This document shows positions 19,766 through 28,650 of a stretch of DNA of 64,000 nucleotides, piece after piece (positions within the stretch are counted from its first letter, which is position 1; each line of letters starts with the position of its first letter). The stretch is from a virus (Duplodnaviria; Heunggongvirae; Uroviricota; Caudoviricetes). Location: the IMG/VR virus record IMGVR_UViG_3300021387_001477; one strand, 5' to 3'. Under the pieces are notes generated by a model, which was not told where the DNA came from, did no database searches, and saw nothing but the letters and a program-made list of their open reading frames with translations. A program made the translations under genes and the position numbers.

Positions 19766-20008
19766 TTAAATTTTCTTCTCCCAAAATGATTTAGATATGT
19801 CGGATGCGCCTTGCCGGCATGCAGAAAGATCATTTCTAAATTTCTTGATGTCCTTTATTTTTCCAGACTTTTCAATATAATTTATATCTTCCTCATCCAA
19901 CTCCAAAGACATAGACACCACCTGCATTCCAAGTGATGTATTTTCACTATCAAGCTCAAACTTATTGTAAAGCTCGATATACTTTTCTAGATCTTTTTTG
20001 TTTATCAT
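19766..20008 (-). CDS. hypothetical protein
   Basis: 80 aa. Confidence 0.7.
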   Translation of the reverse strand: MINKKDLEKYIELYNKFELDSENTSLGMQVVSMSLELDEEDINYIEKSGKIKDIKKFRNDLSACRQGASDISKSFWEKKI

Positions 20009-20049
20009 AATATAATAGTTATTGTCTCTTTTAATAGTTTGTTTTGTTT

Positions 20050-20650
20050 ACCCAGAACTTCTCTTTCCAGGATTTTTGAAGTAAAATCATATCTTTTGTT
20101 CAGTACTCTTCGTCTTACTTATATGTTTTATGATAAGAGAGGTCTGTATACTTCTCTCAAATTACTTCCGACGTCTAAGTTCTCATAATATCATACAGGA
20201 TATTATGATTCCCTAGTTCACGGTGTACATCCGCTACCGCCCTTGTATATCTCTATAATTATTTTTCTTCAAAATAATATCAATATACTGGTTCCAAATT
20301 CTTTTCGAATTCAGAAAATTTATATAATTTGTTACACACGACCGGGCTTAAATAGATACCCAGCCATATGTTTGTCTCTAAAACCATTTTTCCGCTCCCT
20401 AGCCTATACTTATGCACCTTATGTATTCGGTCGGAACTAACAACAATTCCGAATAGGCATTACCCTAGCATAAGCCTGAGACATTTTAACCTCGCCGGGA
20501 CGAGGGTGAGTGGGGACTCTCACATTTCATTATATAAGCTCGCTCTCAGCACCTTCACTATGCTTATATAACTAAGTATAATAATATTATACGCCCCAAA
20601 ATAAAATCAAGAAAACTAGACTATTAAATCTAATTTCCTTGAGGTATTTT
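20050..20650 (-). ncRNA. candidate large structured ncRNA
   Basis: Starts after minus-strand promoter motif 20655-20665; no credible ORF; 10 or more helices including perfect 10-bp stems 20530-20571 and 20183-20208; G-U pairs favour the minus strand. Confidence 0.6.
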
Positions 20651-20677
20651 ATTACATATATAAGGCAATCAAGCTCT

Positions 20678-21061
20678 TTAAAACGGAGGAGTTAGTGGTG
20701 TTCCTGTTGTTGAAATCCCACCATAAGGAAAGTATGAAGGATCAAGATTAAAACTACGTAATAGGTTTTCCAAATGTTGTATACGAGCCTCTAACGCAGT
20801 TATTTGTATGGCCAAATTATTAATCTGGTTCTCGAGATCCAGAATCCTCTCATCCTTTTTAGATAAGATATCACGTATAACATTCTCTGGGCCCTCATCT
20901 AAGATCTTCTCTAGGGCCTTTTGAAGAATTCCCTCGATTATAGAATTATAATCAAAGTTAATATTAAACCCAGCTTCTCCTTTATAATCAGGGTCAGCAG
21001 GTTCACCTTCGCCTCCTTCTGTCCAGGACTGAGAGTTGTTGTAATTATAAAAATCCATCAT
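20678..21061 (-). CDS. coiled-coil hypothetical protein
   Basis: ILDLENQINNLAIQITALEARIQHLENLL heptads. Confidence 0.75.
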   Translation of the reverse strand: MMDFYNYNNSQSWTEGGEGEPADPDYKGEAGFNINFDYNSIIEGILQKALEKILDEGPENVIRDILSKKDERILDLENQINNLAIQITALEARIQHLENLLRSFNLDPSYFPYGGISTTGTPLTPPF

Positions 21062-21065
21062 ATTA

Positions 21066-21779
21066 TTAGTTATTATTATTTATATCTCCGGCCTCGATAA
21101 TCTCCATGATTCCAAGTCCCCTATATATTACATTTTCATACGACCCCGATATAGAGTCATGATAATGCCCGAAATACCAGTAATCGGTTGTAACTTCAGA
21201 TAGTACGTGATTTAAATATTTCCTTTCATCCATAATATTCTCCCACTGATATTCTGGTAATCCTTCTGGTCGTGTAGAGACTGGATTGAAAGAGAGCGGA
21301 GCACAATGACTAATTATTATATCAACTTTTCCGGGGAGATTATCATATTTCTCTATAACTTTTTCTCCTTCCCACCAGACTCTCTTATCTTTTCCTCTTG
21401 ATGCTAATTTTTGATTTGTTTCTAATCTCCACCCAATATCGAGTGAACTAGCACCACCTATCGGATAAATATTCCTTCCTGAAATATTATATATCTTATG
21501 ATCTTCCATAAATCTAAGAAGTGGATAAGAATATTTATCCTCATCGGAAAAATAGACAGGATCATCGTGGTTTCCTCTTATCGTCCAGATTTTGAGATTA
21601 TTTTTCTCTAGTCGCTTTTCTGCCCATTTGTATAGATCTGGCATATCATTAGTAAACCCAATGCCAAAATCTCCAAGTATTATAATATTTGCATCGTGAA
21701 GACCATACTGTTGGGTTATTTTAAAGACGAACTCTTTCCACTCTCCATGTATATCTCCACAAAAATATAAATTATTCAT
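21066..21779 (-). CDS. calcineurin-like metallophosphoesterase
   Basis: GDIHG, LGDFG, RGNHD, SHCAP, FGHYH. Confidence 0.9.
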   Translation of the reverse strand: MNNLYFCGDIHGEWKEFVFKITQQYGLHDANIIILGDFGIGFTNDMPDLYKWAEKRLEKNNLKIWTIRGNHDDPVYFSDEDKYSYPLLRFMEDHKIYNISGRNIYPIGGASSLDIGWRLETNQKLASRGKDKRVWWEGEKVIEKYDNLPGKVDIIISHCAPLSFNPVSTRPEGLPEYQWENIMDERKYLNHVLSEVTTDYWYFGHYHDSISGSYENVIYRGLGIMEIIEAGDINNNN

Positions 21780-21820
21780 ATCAATTATTAGGTCTTCAAC
21801 CTCGCTCTACTACCTTATTA

Positions 21821-22282
21821 ATGATGGATAGTGAAAAATATAGGAAATACTGTATAGAATGTGAAGATTGGTTTAAGAAAGAGGAGGAATTTTATGCCAA
21901 GATGAAGGCTATTCACGACTCTTCTCTTCCGAGGAGTGAAAAAGAAAGAAGACAAGAAAGAATTAGGAAAAAGTACGGTAAGGATGGAAATAGTTCTGAT
22001 TTTGGTCCGTGGGTTGAAATATATGACCCAAAAGACCTTCTAGATCCAAATTTTATACTTCCAGGTTATAATTGTAGTTTTCTTAACTTGTCAAATACCG
22101 ATCATGATATTCCTTCATACTTTGGAAAATATATAATCAGTGAGACTCCAGATTATTATGGAAAGGTCATTGGATACGCATATGATATGGGAGACGATTA
22201 TATAATTGCGTTACATCCTTCTGGTGAGATTCGTGCAATAATAGTTAATTCACATTATAAAGTTTATGATAATAGCAATTGA
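21821..22282 (+). CDS. hypothetical protein
   Basis: 153 aa; promoter motif 21813-21823. Confidence 0.75.
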   Translation: MMDSEKYRKYCIECEDWFKKEEEFYAKMKAIHDSSLPRSEKERRQERIRKKYGKDGNSSDFGPWVEIYDPKDLLDPNFILPGYNCSFLNLSNTDHDIPSYFGKYIISETPDYYGKVIGYAYDMGDDYIIALHPSGEIRAIIVNSHYKVYDNSN

Positions 22283-23019: not shown

Positions 23020-24048
23020 ATGAAGAAAGAAAAATTCAAAAAGAAATTTGTATACAGATTGGGAATGGAGGAAACTAATTCTTCTAGTTCCCACTCTTGT
23101 TGTATTGTTACAGATAGGGCTTTTGAAGCAAGGCCGGGAGATCCAGAATATAATTTAAATATTAAAAATAATATTTTGTATATTCCAGAACCAGACATTG
23201 AATTTGGTTCCGACAGACAAAAATTTAACACTTGTCTAGAAAAATTATGGTATGTCTGTGGTTTTTATGCCACAAGTTATACGGGATATGGACAAAAGAG
23301 GTTGAGAAGGCTGGAGACGATTCTGAAAAAGGTCTTTAATGTGTCTGAGGTTAGGTTTGAATGGGTTGATAGGTTTTTGGCGGATCACTCTGGCGCCGAT
23401 GATGAAGAGGATTTGTGTGAGGAAGTAGAGTCCTTGTCCTATTCTCCGACTATAGACCACCAATCTTGTAGTAGTATGCAAAAAGAAGTTTGTGAATCCA
23501 TAGAGTCGATCAGATCTTTTATATTAAATAAAAATTCATGGTTGTATACAGACGGTGATTGTAGCACTTCTTATGAATTTTATGGAGAAACTTTGAAAGA
23601 AAAAGAGGCAGATATACTACTGAAAATTAACTTTGGTGGAAATTTAGGGATAGTAGATATTCTTGTTTCAGATATGGACATGCTTTTTGCTCTACAGTCC
23701 CCATTTCGTAAGGCATCATCATTCTTAGAGGATCTTATATACAATAGGGAGACTAATATGTTTTATGTTTCTCCTTCACAATATCTTGAGGTTAGAATGG
23801 CTCCAGGATGTGGAAAGAGAAATGATCCGAGAGAAAGTAACCCGGAGAATTACTATGCGATACTCAGTGGAGAAGAGATTATAAAAAACATTGAGGGAAA
23901 ATATTATGTAAAGTTTAGTCAAATTGCAGCAAATGTTCAATCAGTAAAGCCTCAAGAGGAATTTATTCAATTAATGAATATGATAGAGAAAAATTATGTT
24001 CTCTTTCCGGTTGAGATAATTAGTAAAGAATTTGGGAAACTTGTATAA
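23020..24048 (+). CDS. phage protein with ETNSSSSHS motif, radical-SAM-associated
   Basis: TNSS motif, IDHQS; directly upstream of the radical SAM gene; promoter motif 23007-23017. Confidence 0.7.
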   Translation: MKKEKFKKKFVYRLGMEETNSSSSHSCCIVTDRAFEARPGDPEYNLNIKNNILYIPEPDIEFGSDRQKFNTCLEKLWYVCGFYATSYTGYGQKRLRRLETILKKVFNVSEVRFEWVDRFLADHSGADDEEDLCEEVESLSYSPTIDHQSCSSMQKEVCESIESIRSFILNKNSWLYTDGDCSTSYEFYGETLKEKEADILLKINFGGNLGIVDILVSDMDMLFALQSPFRKASSFLEDLIYNRETNMFYVSPSQYLEVRMAPGCGKRNDPRESNPENYYAILSGEEIIKNIEGKYYVKFSQIAANVQSVKPQEEFIQLMNMIEKNYVLFPVEIISKEFGKLV

Positions 24049-25111
24049 AAATCTTAAATTAATGAAGGTGGTAACTGGATATATAAATGGGAATTATATC
24101 GTAAAAAGACTAAGTTATTGTCAATTTCCAGCGATGATAAAAACAGCGCTTCGGGTAGACGAGGAGCTGTGTCCCGCATTTCCCGACTCTATAGATATAA
24201 AAATATCTAATAAGTGTAAGTGGGGATGTAAATTTTGTCATGAGTCTTCTGTGCCTGATGGGAATATACTTGATGTGAATAAGACTATTAATATATTATC
24301 TCAACTTCCAGAAGATACAGGAATAGAGCTTGCTATAGGAGGAGGAAACATCTTAGAGTCGATAGATGAGATAACGCCTTTTATAAATTGGGCAAAAGAG
24401 TATGGATTTCTACTTAGATGTACCTTAAACTATAGAGACGTTCTAACTCTCTCTGAGCGTGAAAAAGAATTTCTCAAAAACTTTTCCGGAATTGGGATTA
24501 GTGTTGACAGATTGGCGGAAGATGTATACCTAGCTCTCAAAGCTTGGAATATTTCTAATAGGAGAGCACCAAACTCATTTAGGATCCGCCTCACAGATTT
24601 AAATTGTCCTAAAAAAATTGATCTATACGTTCACCCTAGAGACAAATTTAGAATGAGTGGCGATATAAATTCTTTTGGTAGTATTGTTGATGAGTATGAT
24701 AAAAACATAGTATTTCATGTTATTGCTGGCATTATTCCACCAGAACATCTACGAGAATTGATATTATCCGAAAATCCCATACTAGTTTTGGGATATAAAC
24801 AATGGGGTCGGGCAATAAATGATACTCTTCCCGACATGACTGAAACAAAACAGGTAATAAAGGAAATTCTAGATGTCCGTCCCTGGGCTGTTCTCGGATT
24901 TGATAACTTAGCCTTGGATCAACTTGGGATAAGAGATATGATTTCGAAGGATAAAATGGAAAATATATACCTCGGAGATGAAGGAACTTGCTCAATGTAT
25001 ATAGATGCTGTAAAGGGGGAATATGCAAAGACTTCAAGATCAAAAGAAAGGGTGAGTTGGGATAACATAGGACTTATAGACTTTTTTAAAGATGATTCAA
25101 TTGCTGTCTAA
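24032..25111 (+). CDS. radical SAM protein (ATG 24062 is an alternative start)
   Basis: CKWGCKFCH CxxxCxxC, AIGGG, MYIDAV. Confidence 0.9.
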   Translation: MGNLYKNLKLMKVVTGYINGNYIVKRLSYCQFPAMIKTALRVDEELCPAFPDSIDIKISNKCKWGCKFCHESSVPDGNILDVNKTINILSQLPEDTGIELAIGGGNILESIDEITPFINWAKEYGFLLRCTLNYRDVLTLSEREKEFLKNFSGIGISVDRLAEDVYLALKAWNISNRRAPNSFRIRLTDLNCPKKIDLYVHPRDKFRMSGDINSFGSIVDEYDKNIVFHVIAGIIPPEHLRELILSENPILVLGYKQWGRAINDTLPDMTETKQVIKEILDVRPWAVLGFDNLALDQLGIRDMISKDKMENIYLGDEGTCSMYIDAVKGEYAKTSRSKERVSWDNIGLIDFFKDDSIAV

Positions 25112-28541: not shown

Positions 28542-28650
28542 AAACTCCTTTTAATTTTTCCGTCTCAGATCTTCCCAATGCCTTATATATGTAGACGATA
28601 CCTTAAGTTAATCTTATGGTTGGTGGCTACATTTTTATTTATTTTAAATC

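Follow-up and report, generated by a model that had tools for sequence, protein, structure and literature searches.

Can a gap without genes in the genome of a tailed phage be the gene for a large RNA that acts on its own? The question is raised by a 64,000-nucleotide (nt) stretch of a Caudoviricetes virus (IMG/VR record IMGVR_UViG_3300021387_001477), referred to here in its full length as the window. Between two minus-strand open reading frames (ORFs), 20678-21061 and 19766-20008, the window has a non-coding gap of 669 nt (20009-20677). A first-pass annotation of the sequence had proposed a multi-domain structured RNA of about 600 nt at this place, and the proposal has been borne out by strand-specific folding, by homologues and by covariation. 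The segment from about 20655 to about 20045 on the minus strand is interpreted as a single-copy gene for a stand-alone structured non-coding RNA of a new class, with a probability of roughly 0.82. Only a handful of bacterial or phage RNAs longer than 500 nt with ornate conserved folds are known.

Folding signal and strand

The minus strand of the gap has a minimum free energy (MFE) of -178 kcal/mol, against a mean of -139 for shuffled sequences (z = -7.97). The plus strand reaches z = -1.74, so that the folding excess is strand-specific. Invariant G-U pairs in the 5' domain also assign the transcribed strand to the minus strand of the window, and the features of the RNA described below lie on that strand. 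About 25 helices with 169 base pairs (bp) in total, all of them checked in the sequence, are present in the window copy. They are arranged in a 5' domain (P2-P9) with two pseudoknots (PK) and a 3' domain (Vb-P17) with a loop-loop kiss, separated by an A/U-rich linker. Dozens of unpaired nucleotides are invariant across the homologues.

Homologues

Homologues were gathered by synteny, motif scans and a covariance model. They occur on about 50 metagenomic or viral contigs and form at least 21 sequence groups (19 at 95% identity clustering, before the subgroups F and G were joined). The phage contigs that carry them, from metagenomes of rumen and gut, measure 100-380 kb where size is informative. 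Several belong to the cow rumen project PRJEB21624. Relatives have a gene-free gap of 700-780 nt after the phosphoesterase block, and nhmmer found these gaps to be homologous to that of the window (E = 1e-14 to 1e-20; 5e-92 with a profile). A 315-kb contig, whose phosphoesterase is only 43% identical, carries its copy in reversed orientation. The record that is 93% complete, of 367 kb, contains exactly one copy of the RNA.

Of 25 metagenome loci that matched a three-part pattern built on invariant motifs, 23 are true copies; L142 and L158 were chance matches. The same pattern added one contig of 184 kb from IMG/VR and no true copy from the representative genomes of 185,579 prokaryote species in GTDB, where the matches L159 and L160 were due to chance and were rejected by the covariance model. 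With a pattern for the P17 hairpin, 16 IMG/VR contigs of 200-380 kb were added, which carry the more divergent subgroups F and G. Other searches were less productive. No match to the region was found by blastn among 50,697 phage records; the neighbouring phosphoesterase, searched in IMG/VR, retrieved only two loci, 23% identical, with the RNA absent from both; and the short motif GARTTGTTGTTAGYTC had 108 matches in IMG/VR, nearly all of them by chance.

Covariation

The covariance model of the 5' domain covers 20575-20389 of the window (178 positions, 47 pairs) and matches 30 loci at E = 2e-26 or better. In the corresponding alignment 98.6% of the cells are canonical, and 34 of the 47 pairs show compensatory changes, compared with 7-12 in controls slid by 1-3 columns; the covariation score of 0.596 stands against at most 0.11 and was reached by none of 500 shuffles. 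These figures come from an alignment that was fitted to the model and favours the structure, which affects part of the pair statistics. The subgroups F and G, which were outside the model building, score 78 and 54 bits and keep every helix by means of new compensatory changes. After their addition 97.7% of the cells are canonical, and 38 of the 47 pairs covary versus 10-16 in the slid controls.

The whole molecule was aligned without reference to structure (MAFFT L-INS-i, 29 distinct full-length copies) and folded with RNAalifold. The result is a set of 106 nested pairs, 93.8% canonical, of which 77 are compensatory compared with 21-30 after sliding; with 38 sequences, 66 of 82 pairs covary, compared with 18-25. 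In the 3' domain a MAFFT alignment (A6) placed the UUACAG motif wrongly between groups and no model was built on it. For this reason the statistics of that domain derive from our own scripts and not from a covariance model. Mutual information with average product correction, at about 18 effective sequences, is noisy, and about one third of the top 80 pairs fall inside helices. Overall, covariation is strong and above the slid controls.

What the homologues conserve is the pairing and not a reading frame. The longest ORF starting with ATG varies between 19 and 67 amino acids (aa) across lineages, and no frame is conserved. Only 21% of the pairwise indels are multiples of three, and the substitutions show no marked three-base periodicity and no strong third-position bias. 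The last 140 nt or so (20050-20190), which had been regarded as a possible decayed frame, form the covarying helices P14-P17.

Search of known families

Rfam 15 contains no model that matches the window at the gathering score, and none matches five related loci at that score. With the threshold relaxed to E up to 10, the segment 19900-20800 and 12 homologous loci gave only scattered sub-threshold noise. The models of ROOL (RF03087) and GOLLD (RF01998) were silent under these conditions for the window copy and the 12 homologues. Self-splicing introns, RNase P, tmRNA, 6S, SRP and HEARO/omega RNAs had no Rfam or ARAGORN match, and ARAGORN detected no tRNA or tmRNA in the window. The view that the RNA belongs to no recognisable family therefore stands. 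A literature search found no earlier description of it, which is not proof that none is published. By its features the RNA looks like a further, new class of giant ornate phage RNA: it measures about 600-800 nt, has many junctions, three tertiary pairings, invariant unpaired bases and a disordered linker, and is encoded by phages.

The 5' end: a promoter-like motif and the hairpin H1

The motif CCTTATATATG (20655-20665) had been taken as a promoter. It is real and recurrent, and its assignment as a promoter rests on this recurrence and on the analogy with phiKZ. The consensus CCTTATWWATG occurs 46 times in the window with at most one mismatch, versus 10.9 occurrences expected, and the motif stands at the same relative place in every homologue with a 5' flank. 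In 20 of the 46 instances the ATG of a long ORF (at least 60 aa) follows 0-7 nt beyond the ATG of the motif itself, mostly with the spacing ..TATATG NN ATG. Sites on gene starts are found, for example, at 4449-4459 (+), 21813-21823 (+), 36110-36120 (+) and 50440-50430 (-).

The non-virion RNA polymerase of phiKZ uses a late promoter TATG and starts at the G (PMC4666361). The motif described here also ends in TATG and is placed directly at gene starts; it differs in being longer (CCTTATWWATG), and the phages that carry it are unrelated to phiKZ in sequence. By this analogy the RNA would start at G20655. As the motif sits at gene starts, transcripts from it would be nearly leaderless, which suggests that near-leaderless mRNAs are made from a phiKZ-like TATG promoter. 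The conservation of the motif at start codons points to this form of expression in uncultured jumbo phages. A sigma-70-like promoter inside P2/P3 was also considered and rejected, since the covarying 5' strand of P3 would then go untranscribed.

In the window the ATG of the motif is followed directly by TAA, and in groups A, B, C and F it is followed at once by TAA, TGA or TAG. Such an ATG-stop would halt any ribosome loading on this 5' end. Downstream of the motif is H1 (20607-20642), a 16-bp hairpin followed by the U-run UUUUAUUUU, which was detected in a terminator scan and has 16 of 16 pairs in the window. It includes the ucaagga/uucuuga pairing of the first-pass annotation. In groups A, B, C, E and F a hairpin with compensatory changes stands at the equivalent position. 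By its form H1 resembles an intrinsic terminator and could be that of the upstream gene, or it could serve as a 5' leader hairpin or attenuator. Its conserved base sequence ACCU-AAG recurs at 55240 (-) and 28581 (+), within two repeats of the 5' module (55240-55180 (-) and 28581-28645 (+)) that comprise the motif, an ATG with an immediate stop, the ACCU-AAG hairpin and a U-run. These repeats could give rise to tiny transcripts or be attenuators.

Anatomy of the 5' domain

All the helices listed in the first-pass annotation are present in the sequence, and the homologues distinguish those that are conserved. The guauaa/uuauac pairing corresponds to P2 (20576-20594), a hairpin with five consensus pairs, three of them covarying, and 96% canonical cells versus 10-58% in the slid controls. 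Its loop is UGAAACGAAU in most relatives; the window copy has a 7-bp stem and an AUU loop. The 10-bp uuauauaagc helix is part of P3 (20529-20572), formed by an 11-bp stem (20572-20562 with 20539-20529), in which 10 of 11 pairs covary, and a 2-bp inner stem. The loop of P3 holds the invariant GAAGGUGC and the 5' strand of the first pseudoknot, PK-A, in which CUGAGA (20544-20549) pairs with UCUCAG (20476-20481). All six pairs of PK-A covary and 99.4% of the cells are canonical. The subgroups not seen by the model have their own versions, CCAGAA/UUCUGG in F and GUGAUGA/UCAUCAC in G.

Next come two hairpins that were also listed in the first pass and are supported by homologues. P4 (GUGAG/CUCAC, 20506-20523) has four of four model pairs covarying and is 100% canonical. 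P5 (CCUCG/CGAGG, 20490-20505) is equally canonical, and its two outer pairs covary. The 6-nt loop of P5 (20495-20500) pairs with 20396-20402 to form PK-B, with 3-5 covarying pairs; in subgroup G the loop UCAGAA meets UUCUGA. P7 (GCUUAUGC/GCAUAAGU, 20408-20475) has nine pairs, of which 7-9 covary. It encloses P7a (20454-20467), which is specific to the window, P8 (20432-20451), with the invariant loop UGUUGUUAG and five covarying pairs, and P9 (20416-20418 with 20429-20431), with three. P8 is the former ucggaa/uuccga helix and has homologue support. The domain ends with the 3' strand of PK-B and a near-invariant single-stranded run, GAGCGGAAA..AUGGUUUU (20380-20403), whose columns are invariant and which served as a search pattern that recovered true homologues.

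Other proposals for this domain fared differently. The pairing cuuaugc/gcauaag, regarded as long-range and possibly a pseudoknot, is the real helix P7 (nine pairs, seven covarying) and not a pseudoknot. The pairing gucuc/gagac has only about 50% canonical cells across the homologues, since UCUCAG is engaged with CUGAGA in PK-A instead. The pairing gccuau/auaggc is not conserved, and aggc/gccu falls in a window-specific insert that is better read as UAGG/CCUA. Pseudoknots, which had been anticipated as a possibility, do exist, and they are PK-A, PK-B and PK-C instead of those put forward.

The linker, the 3' domain and the 3' end

The linker (20317-20379) is A/U-rich and hypervariable, and both its length and its sequence differ between groups. 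It includes Va (20340-20365), a lineage-specific hairpin. The 3' domain opens with Vb (20292-20316), a 10-bp hairpin with a GAAAA pentaloop in which seven of seven predicted pairs covary; the loop reads GAAGA, GGAAA or GAGAA in relatives. Vc (20245-20288) consists of an outer 6-bp stem, a conserved internal loop (AUUGA../..AUAGAGA), an inner 8-bp stem and a GAAGA pentaloop. All eight inner pairs covary and the outer stem covaries as well. Together with P16a, Vb and Vc provide three GNRNA-type pentaloops that recur across groups.

The first junction is closed by P11 (GGCG/CGUC, 20170-20241), in which three of four pairs covary and which contains the top mutual-information pair. It holds P12 (20220-20234), with the palindromic loop AUGUACA and five covarying pairs, P13 (20212-20216 with 20175-20179), with three, P13a (20183-20208), canonical in the window, and the invariant GUGAAC. 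All pairs of the junction are canonical in the window. The loop of P13a presents CUGUAU (20193-20198), which kisses AUACAG (20144-20149) in the loop of the P14 hairpin (20135-20158) and so forms PK-C. The hexamers are complementary at six of six positions in the 16 lineages where they are correctly read, with a switch from A-U to U-A between groups. In constrained folds of 17 lineages UACAG mostly falls in a hairpin loop; three of them (L149, L139, L144) have no clean P14. The second junction is closed by P15 (GAAGUAA/UUACUUC, 20078-20168; six of seven pairs covarying, 99% canonical), with P16 (20129-20134 with 20086-20091) inside it and P16a (20102-20115), tipped by a GAAGA pentaloop, inside P16. 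This layout is kept in most of the folded lineages, and F and G carry AACUUAGA/UCUAAGUU. Three of the helices that had been picked out earlier are supported by the homologues: gcuggg/cccggu as Va, uucugaauuc/gaauuuggaa as Vb and ucauaauauc/gauauuauga as P13a. A long-range P10 (GGUUU/GAACY) and an extension of P12 (GGU/ACY) were tried; they involve invariant bases only and exclude each other, and neither is claimed.

The last element is the P17 hairpin (CCUGGAA/UUCUGGG, 20051-20071), whose purine loop AGAGAAG is conserved; 5-7 of its pairs covary, and 99% of the cells are canonical. In 12 of 15 other lineages P17 is followed by a strong hairpin and a U-rich tract. No terminator-like hairpin was found after P17 in the window copy and in L156, and that of L132 is weak. 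In the window, P17 is followed by an A-rich tail (20009-20050) and then by the ATG of the next ORF at 20008.

Proposed mode of action

A working scheme can be drawn from these elements. Judged by the late promoter of phiKZ, transcription would start at CCTTATATATG, a promoter of the phage type, and in most relatives it would stop at the hairpin and U-tract after P17. As the terminator is missing from the window copy, transcription may continue there into the small ORFs downstream. The RNA folds into two domains, the 5' one locked by PK-A and PK-B and the 3' one by the kiss PK-C, and would operate as a stand-alone, trans-acting ornate RNA that may self-associate.

ROOL is a homo-octameric nanocage. 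ROOL and GOLLD assemble from RNA alone into cages whose contacts are kissing loops, palindromic in some cases, and switches from one palindrome to another have been taken as evidence of intermolecular pairing (bioRxiv 10.1101/2024.12.08.627333). In the RNA described here the apical loop of P12 is palindromic in each of its three versions: GUAUAC, found in most lineages, UGUACA, the form of the window, and AUAUAU, shared by F and G. An additional hairpin with GUUAAC at its tip is present in groups B and C. Self-association of the particle in the manner of ROOL and GOLLD is, by this comparison, a possibility to which we would give clearly less than even odds, the candidate contacts being the P12 loop and the three GNRNA pentaloops.

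The following points weigh against these interpretations, in addition to the structure-favouring alignment of the 5' domain. The ends of the RNA and its expression are deduced from sequence features. H1 lies between the motif and the conserved core, so that the RNA may in truth begin only beyond H1, or H1 may act as an attenuator of transcription. The window copy, without a 3' terminator and abutting the next ORF, could act as a leader too. As for self-association, the P12 palindrome is suggestive but weak, as it can also be read as a closing pair with a tetraloop, and a change of the central tetranucleotide of the loop (UAUA to GUAC) is seen in the window alone.

A more speculative extension, to be taken as tentative, is that the RNA represents a third independent class of giant phage RNA, either a protein-free multimer held by the symmetric kissing of palindromic loops or a new large ribozyme. 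It would be present once per genome in virulent-type jumbo phages of Bacteroidota, transcribed from a promoter of a phage polymerase, with a hairpin gating read-through. If an unrelated class with similar general traits exists in another phage lineage and has no association with tRNAs, giant structured RNAs would be a recurrent invention of phages. The RNA would offer an independent system for asking what giant phage RNAs do. Its two domains, mapped pseudoknots and candidate kissing loops would make it a well-defined target for cryo-electron microscopy.

Alternative explanations

Invariant unpaired nucleotides in a pseudoknotted core are a hallmark of RNase P and of group I and II introns. The core described here contains GAAGGU, GUUAAAAU, UGUUGUUAG, GUAUAGGC, GAGCGGAAA and GUGAAC, all invariant and unpaired, and genes with domains of the RNA-repair type are encoded in the same genomes (the adjacent metallophosphoesterase, RlaP in the window, and PNK3P in related loci). 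With these observations in its favour, the reading that the RNA is a large ribozyme, or the RNA part of a phage ribonucleoprotein enzyme, is the likeliest of the alternatives, although unlikely in itself: there is no sign of a substrate, a cleavage site or flanking exons, the ribozyme models give only sub-threshold noise, and strict gene linkage is limited to the upstream acidic coiled-coil protein.

The boxB loops of lambda nutR and nutL read GAAGA and GAAAA. Pentaloops of the GNRNA type recur in Vb, Vc and P16a, and the RNA might accordingly be a sponge or scaffold whose pentaloop hairpins and purine-rich P17 loop bind several copies of a phage or host protein. This is somewhat less probable than an enzyme, as groups D and E carry 7-nt loops (such as UGAUGAA or UGAUAAA) in Vb and Vc instead. 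Moreover, GNRA-like loops are also ordinary modules of tertiary contact, and no candidate binding protein was identified.

In most loci the RNA is followed by small ORFs, from which no terminator separates it in L156 and the window copy, and the succession of motif and terminator-like H1, which is repeated upstream of ORF 28651, resembles attenuation or antitermination. A cis-acting leader that controls these ORFs (riboswitch-like, attenuator or antitermination) is nevertheless improbable. The strong hairpin and U-tract separate the RNA from the next gene in 12 of 15 lineages, the downstream families vary by group (F20, F23, F7), group D differs in neighbourhood and orientation, and a length of about 600 nt with about 25 helices far exceeds known cis-regulators.

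The name ROOL stands for Rumen-Originating, Ornate, Large; these RNAs have a mean length of 581 nt and were first seen in cow rumen metagenomes (PMC5737381; bioRxiv 10.1101/2024.12.08.627333). The RNA described here shares with them the association with phages, the cow rumen habitat, a similar size, multistem junctions, three pseudoknot-type contacts and a poorly conserved linker. It differs in its conserved sequences and helix layout, in the absence of a model match and in its carriers, which are virulent-type phage contigs of 100-380 kb, while ROOL is found in prophages of Bacillota. ROOL often lies beside tRNA genes; no tRNA was found within about 5 kb of the RNA in 18 loci, and in the near-complete record G001 it is more than 110 kb away from the tRNA island. 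GOLLD is likewise a giant ornate RNA of phages and prophages, with two parts of unequal conservation and a linker, and the subgroups F and G here also share the 3' domain and differ in the 5' domain. GOLLD, however, often exceeds 800 nt and lies beside tRNAs, and its model does not match. A very divergent member of either class is therefore a distant prospect. OLE and raiA, large bacterial non-coding RNAs of about 200-600 nt that form dimers, resemble the RNA in three respects: covariation is extensive, many unpaired nucleotides do not vary, and loops make symmetric contacts. Both are encoded on the chromosomes of Bacillota and Actinomycetota, protein partners are known for OLE, and neither shows sequence or model similarity to the RNA.

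A decayed or unusual coding region, or a set of small ORFs, can practically be dismissed: the window copy does have ORFs of 45-67 aa on both strands, but none is conserved, and compensatory pair changes occur throughout.

Genomic context and hosts

The neighbouring metallophosphoesterase (21066-21779) has 78 relatives, many of them on contigs of 300-400 kb. The PHROG and Pfam matches of the window proteins are of the jumbo-phage type. They include a CobS/CobT-like ATPase with a VWA partner (8818-11795), a radical SAM protein (24032-25111), an RlaP-type RNA-repair nucleotidyltransferase (51899-53116) and an F420-ligase-like protein (57668-58792). One gene on a related contig codes for a beta-like protein of the multisubunit RNA polymerase type. 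Among cultured phages, the nearest relative of one window protein is in Bacteroides phage BS162P1 (47% identity), and the phosphoesterase matches 15 Prevotella phage records; the hosts are probably Bacteroidota. The acidic coiled-coil protein encoded upstream of the RNA, the only one whose gene is strictly linked to it, has no RNA-binding signature.

The copies of subgroups F (L164 9180-9990 (-)) and G (L181 8560-9540 (+)) have a near-identical 5' leader and 3' domain and strongly different 5' domains, with large inserts in G. This contrast suggests that domains were exchanged or that they diverged rapidly.

In a more distant relative, a 98-kb contig, four tRNA genes (L128 1829-2226) fill the slot of the RNA after the metallophosphoesterase and a 152-aa gene. 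On a 305-kb contig, 1.9 kb beside the phosphoesterase (L130 6087-8011) have no ORF of at least 70 aa, no Rfam match and no match to the model of the RNA. The stretch could hold one more RNA without annotation, or its genes may have been missed in gene calling.

A second gene-free stretch

The gap of the RNA had been described as the longest non-coding stretch in the window. A longer one, of 718 nt without a credible ORF, lies at 35400-36117 (+) and has an MFE z-score of -3.95. It contains two exact 17-nt copies of TGATTTCCTTATATATG, direct repeats of 68 nt and 57 nt, and repeated GGAGCGAAGCGAAGTGGAGG units, and it may hold further non-coding RNAs.

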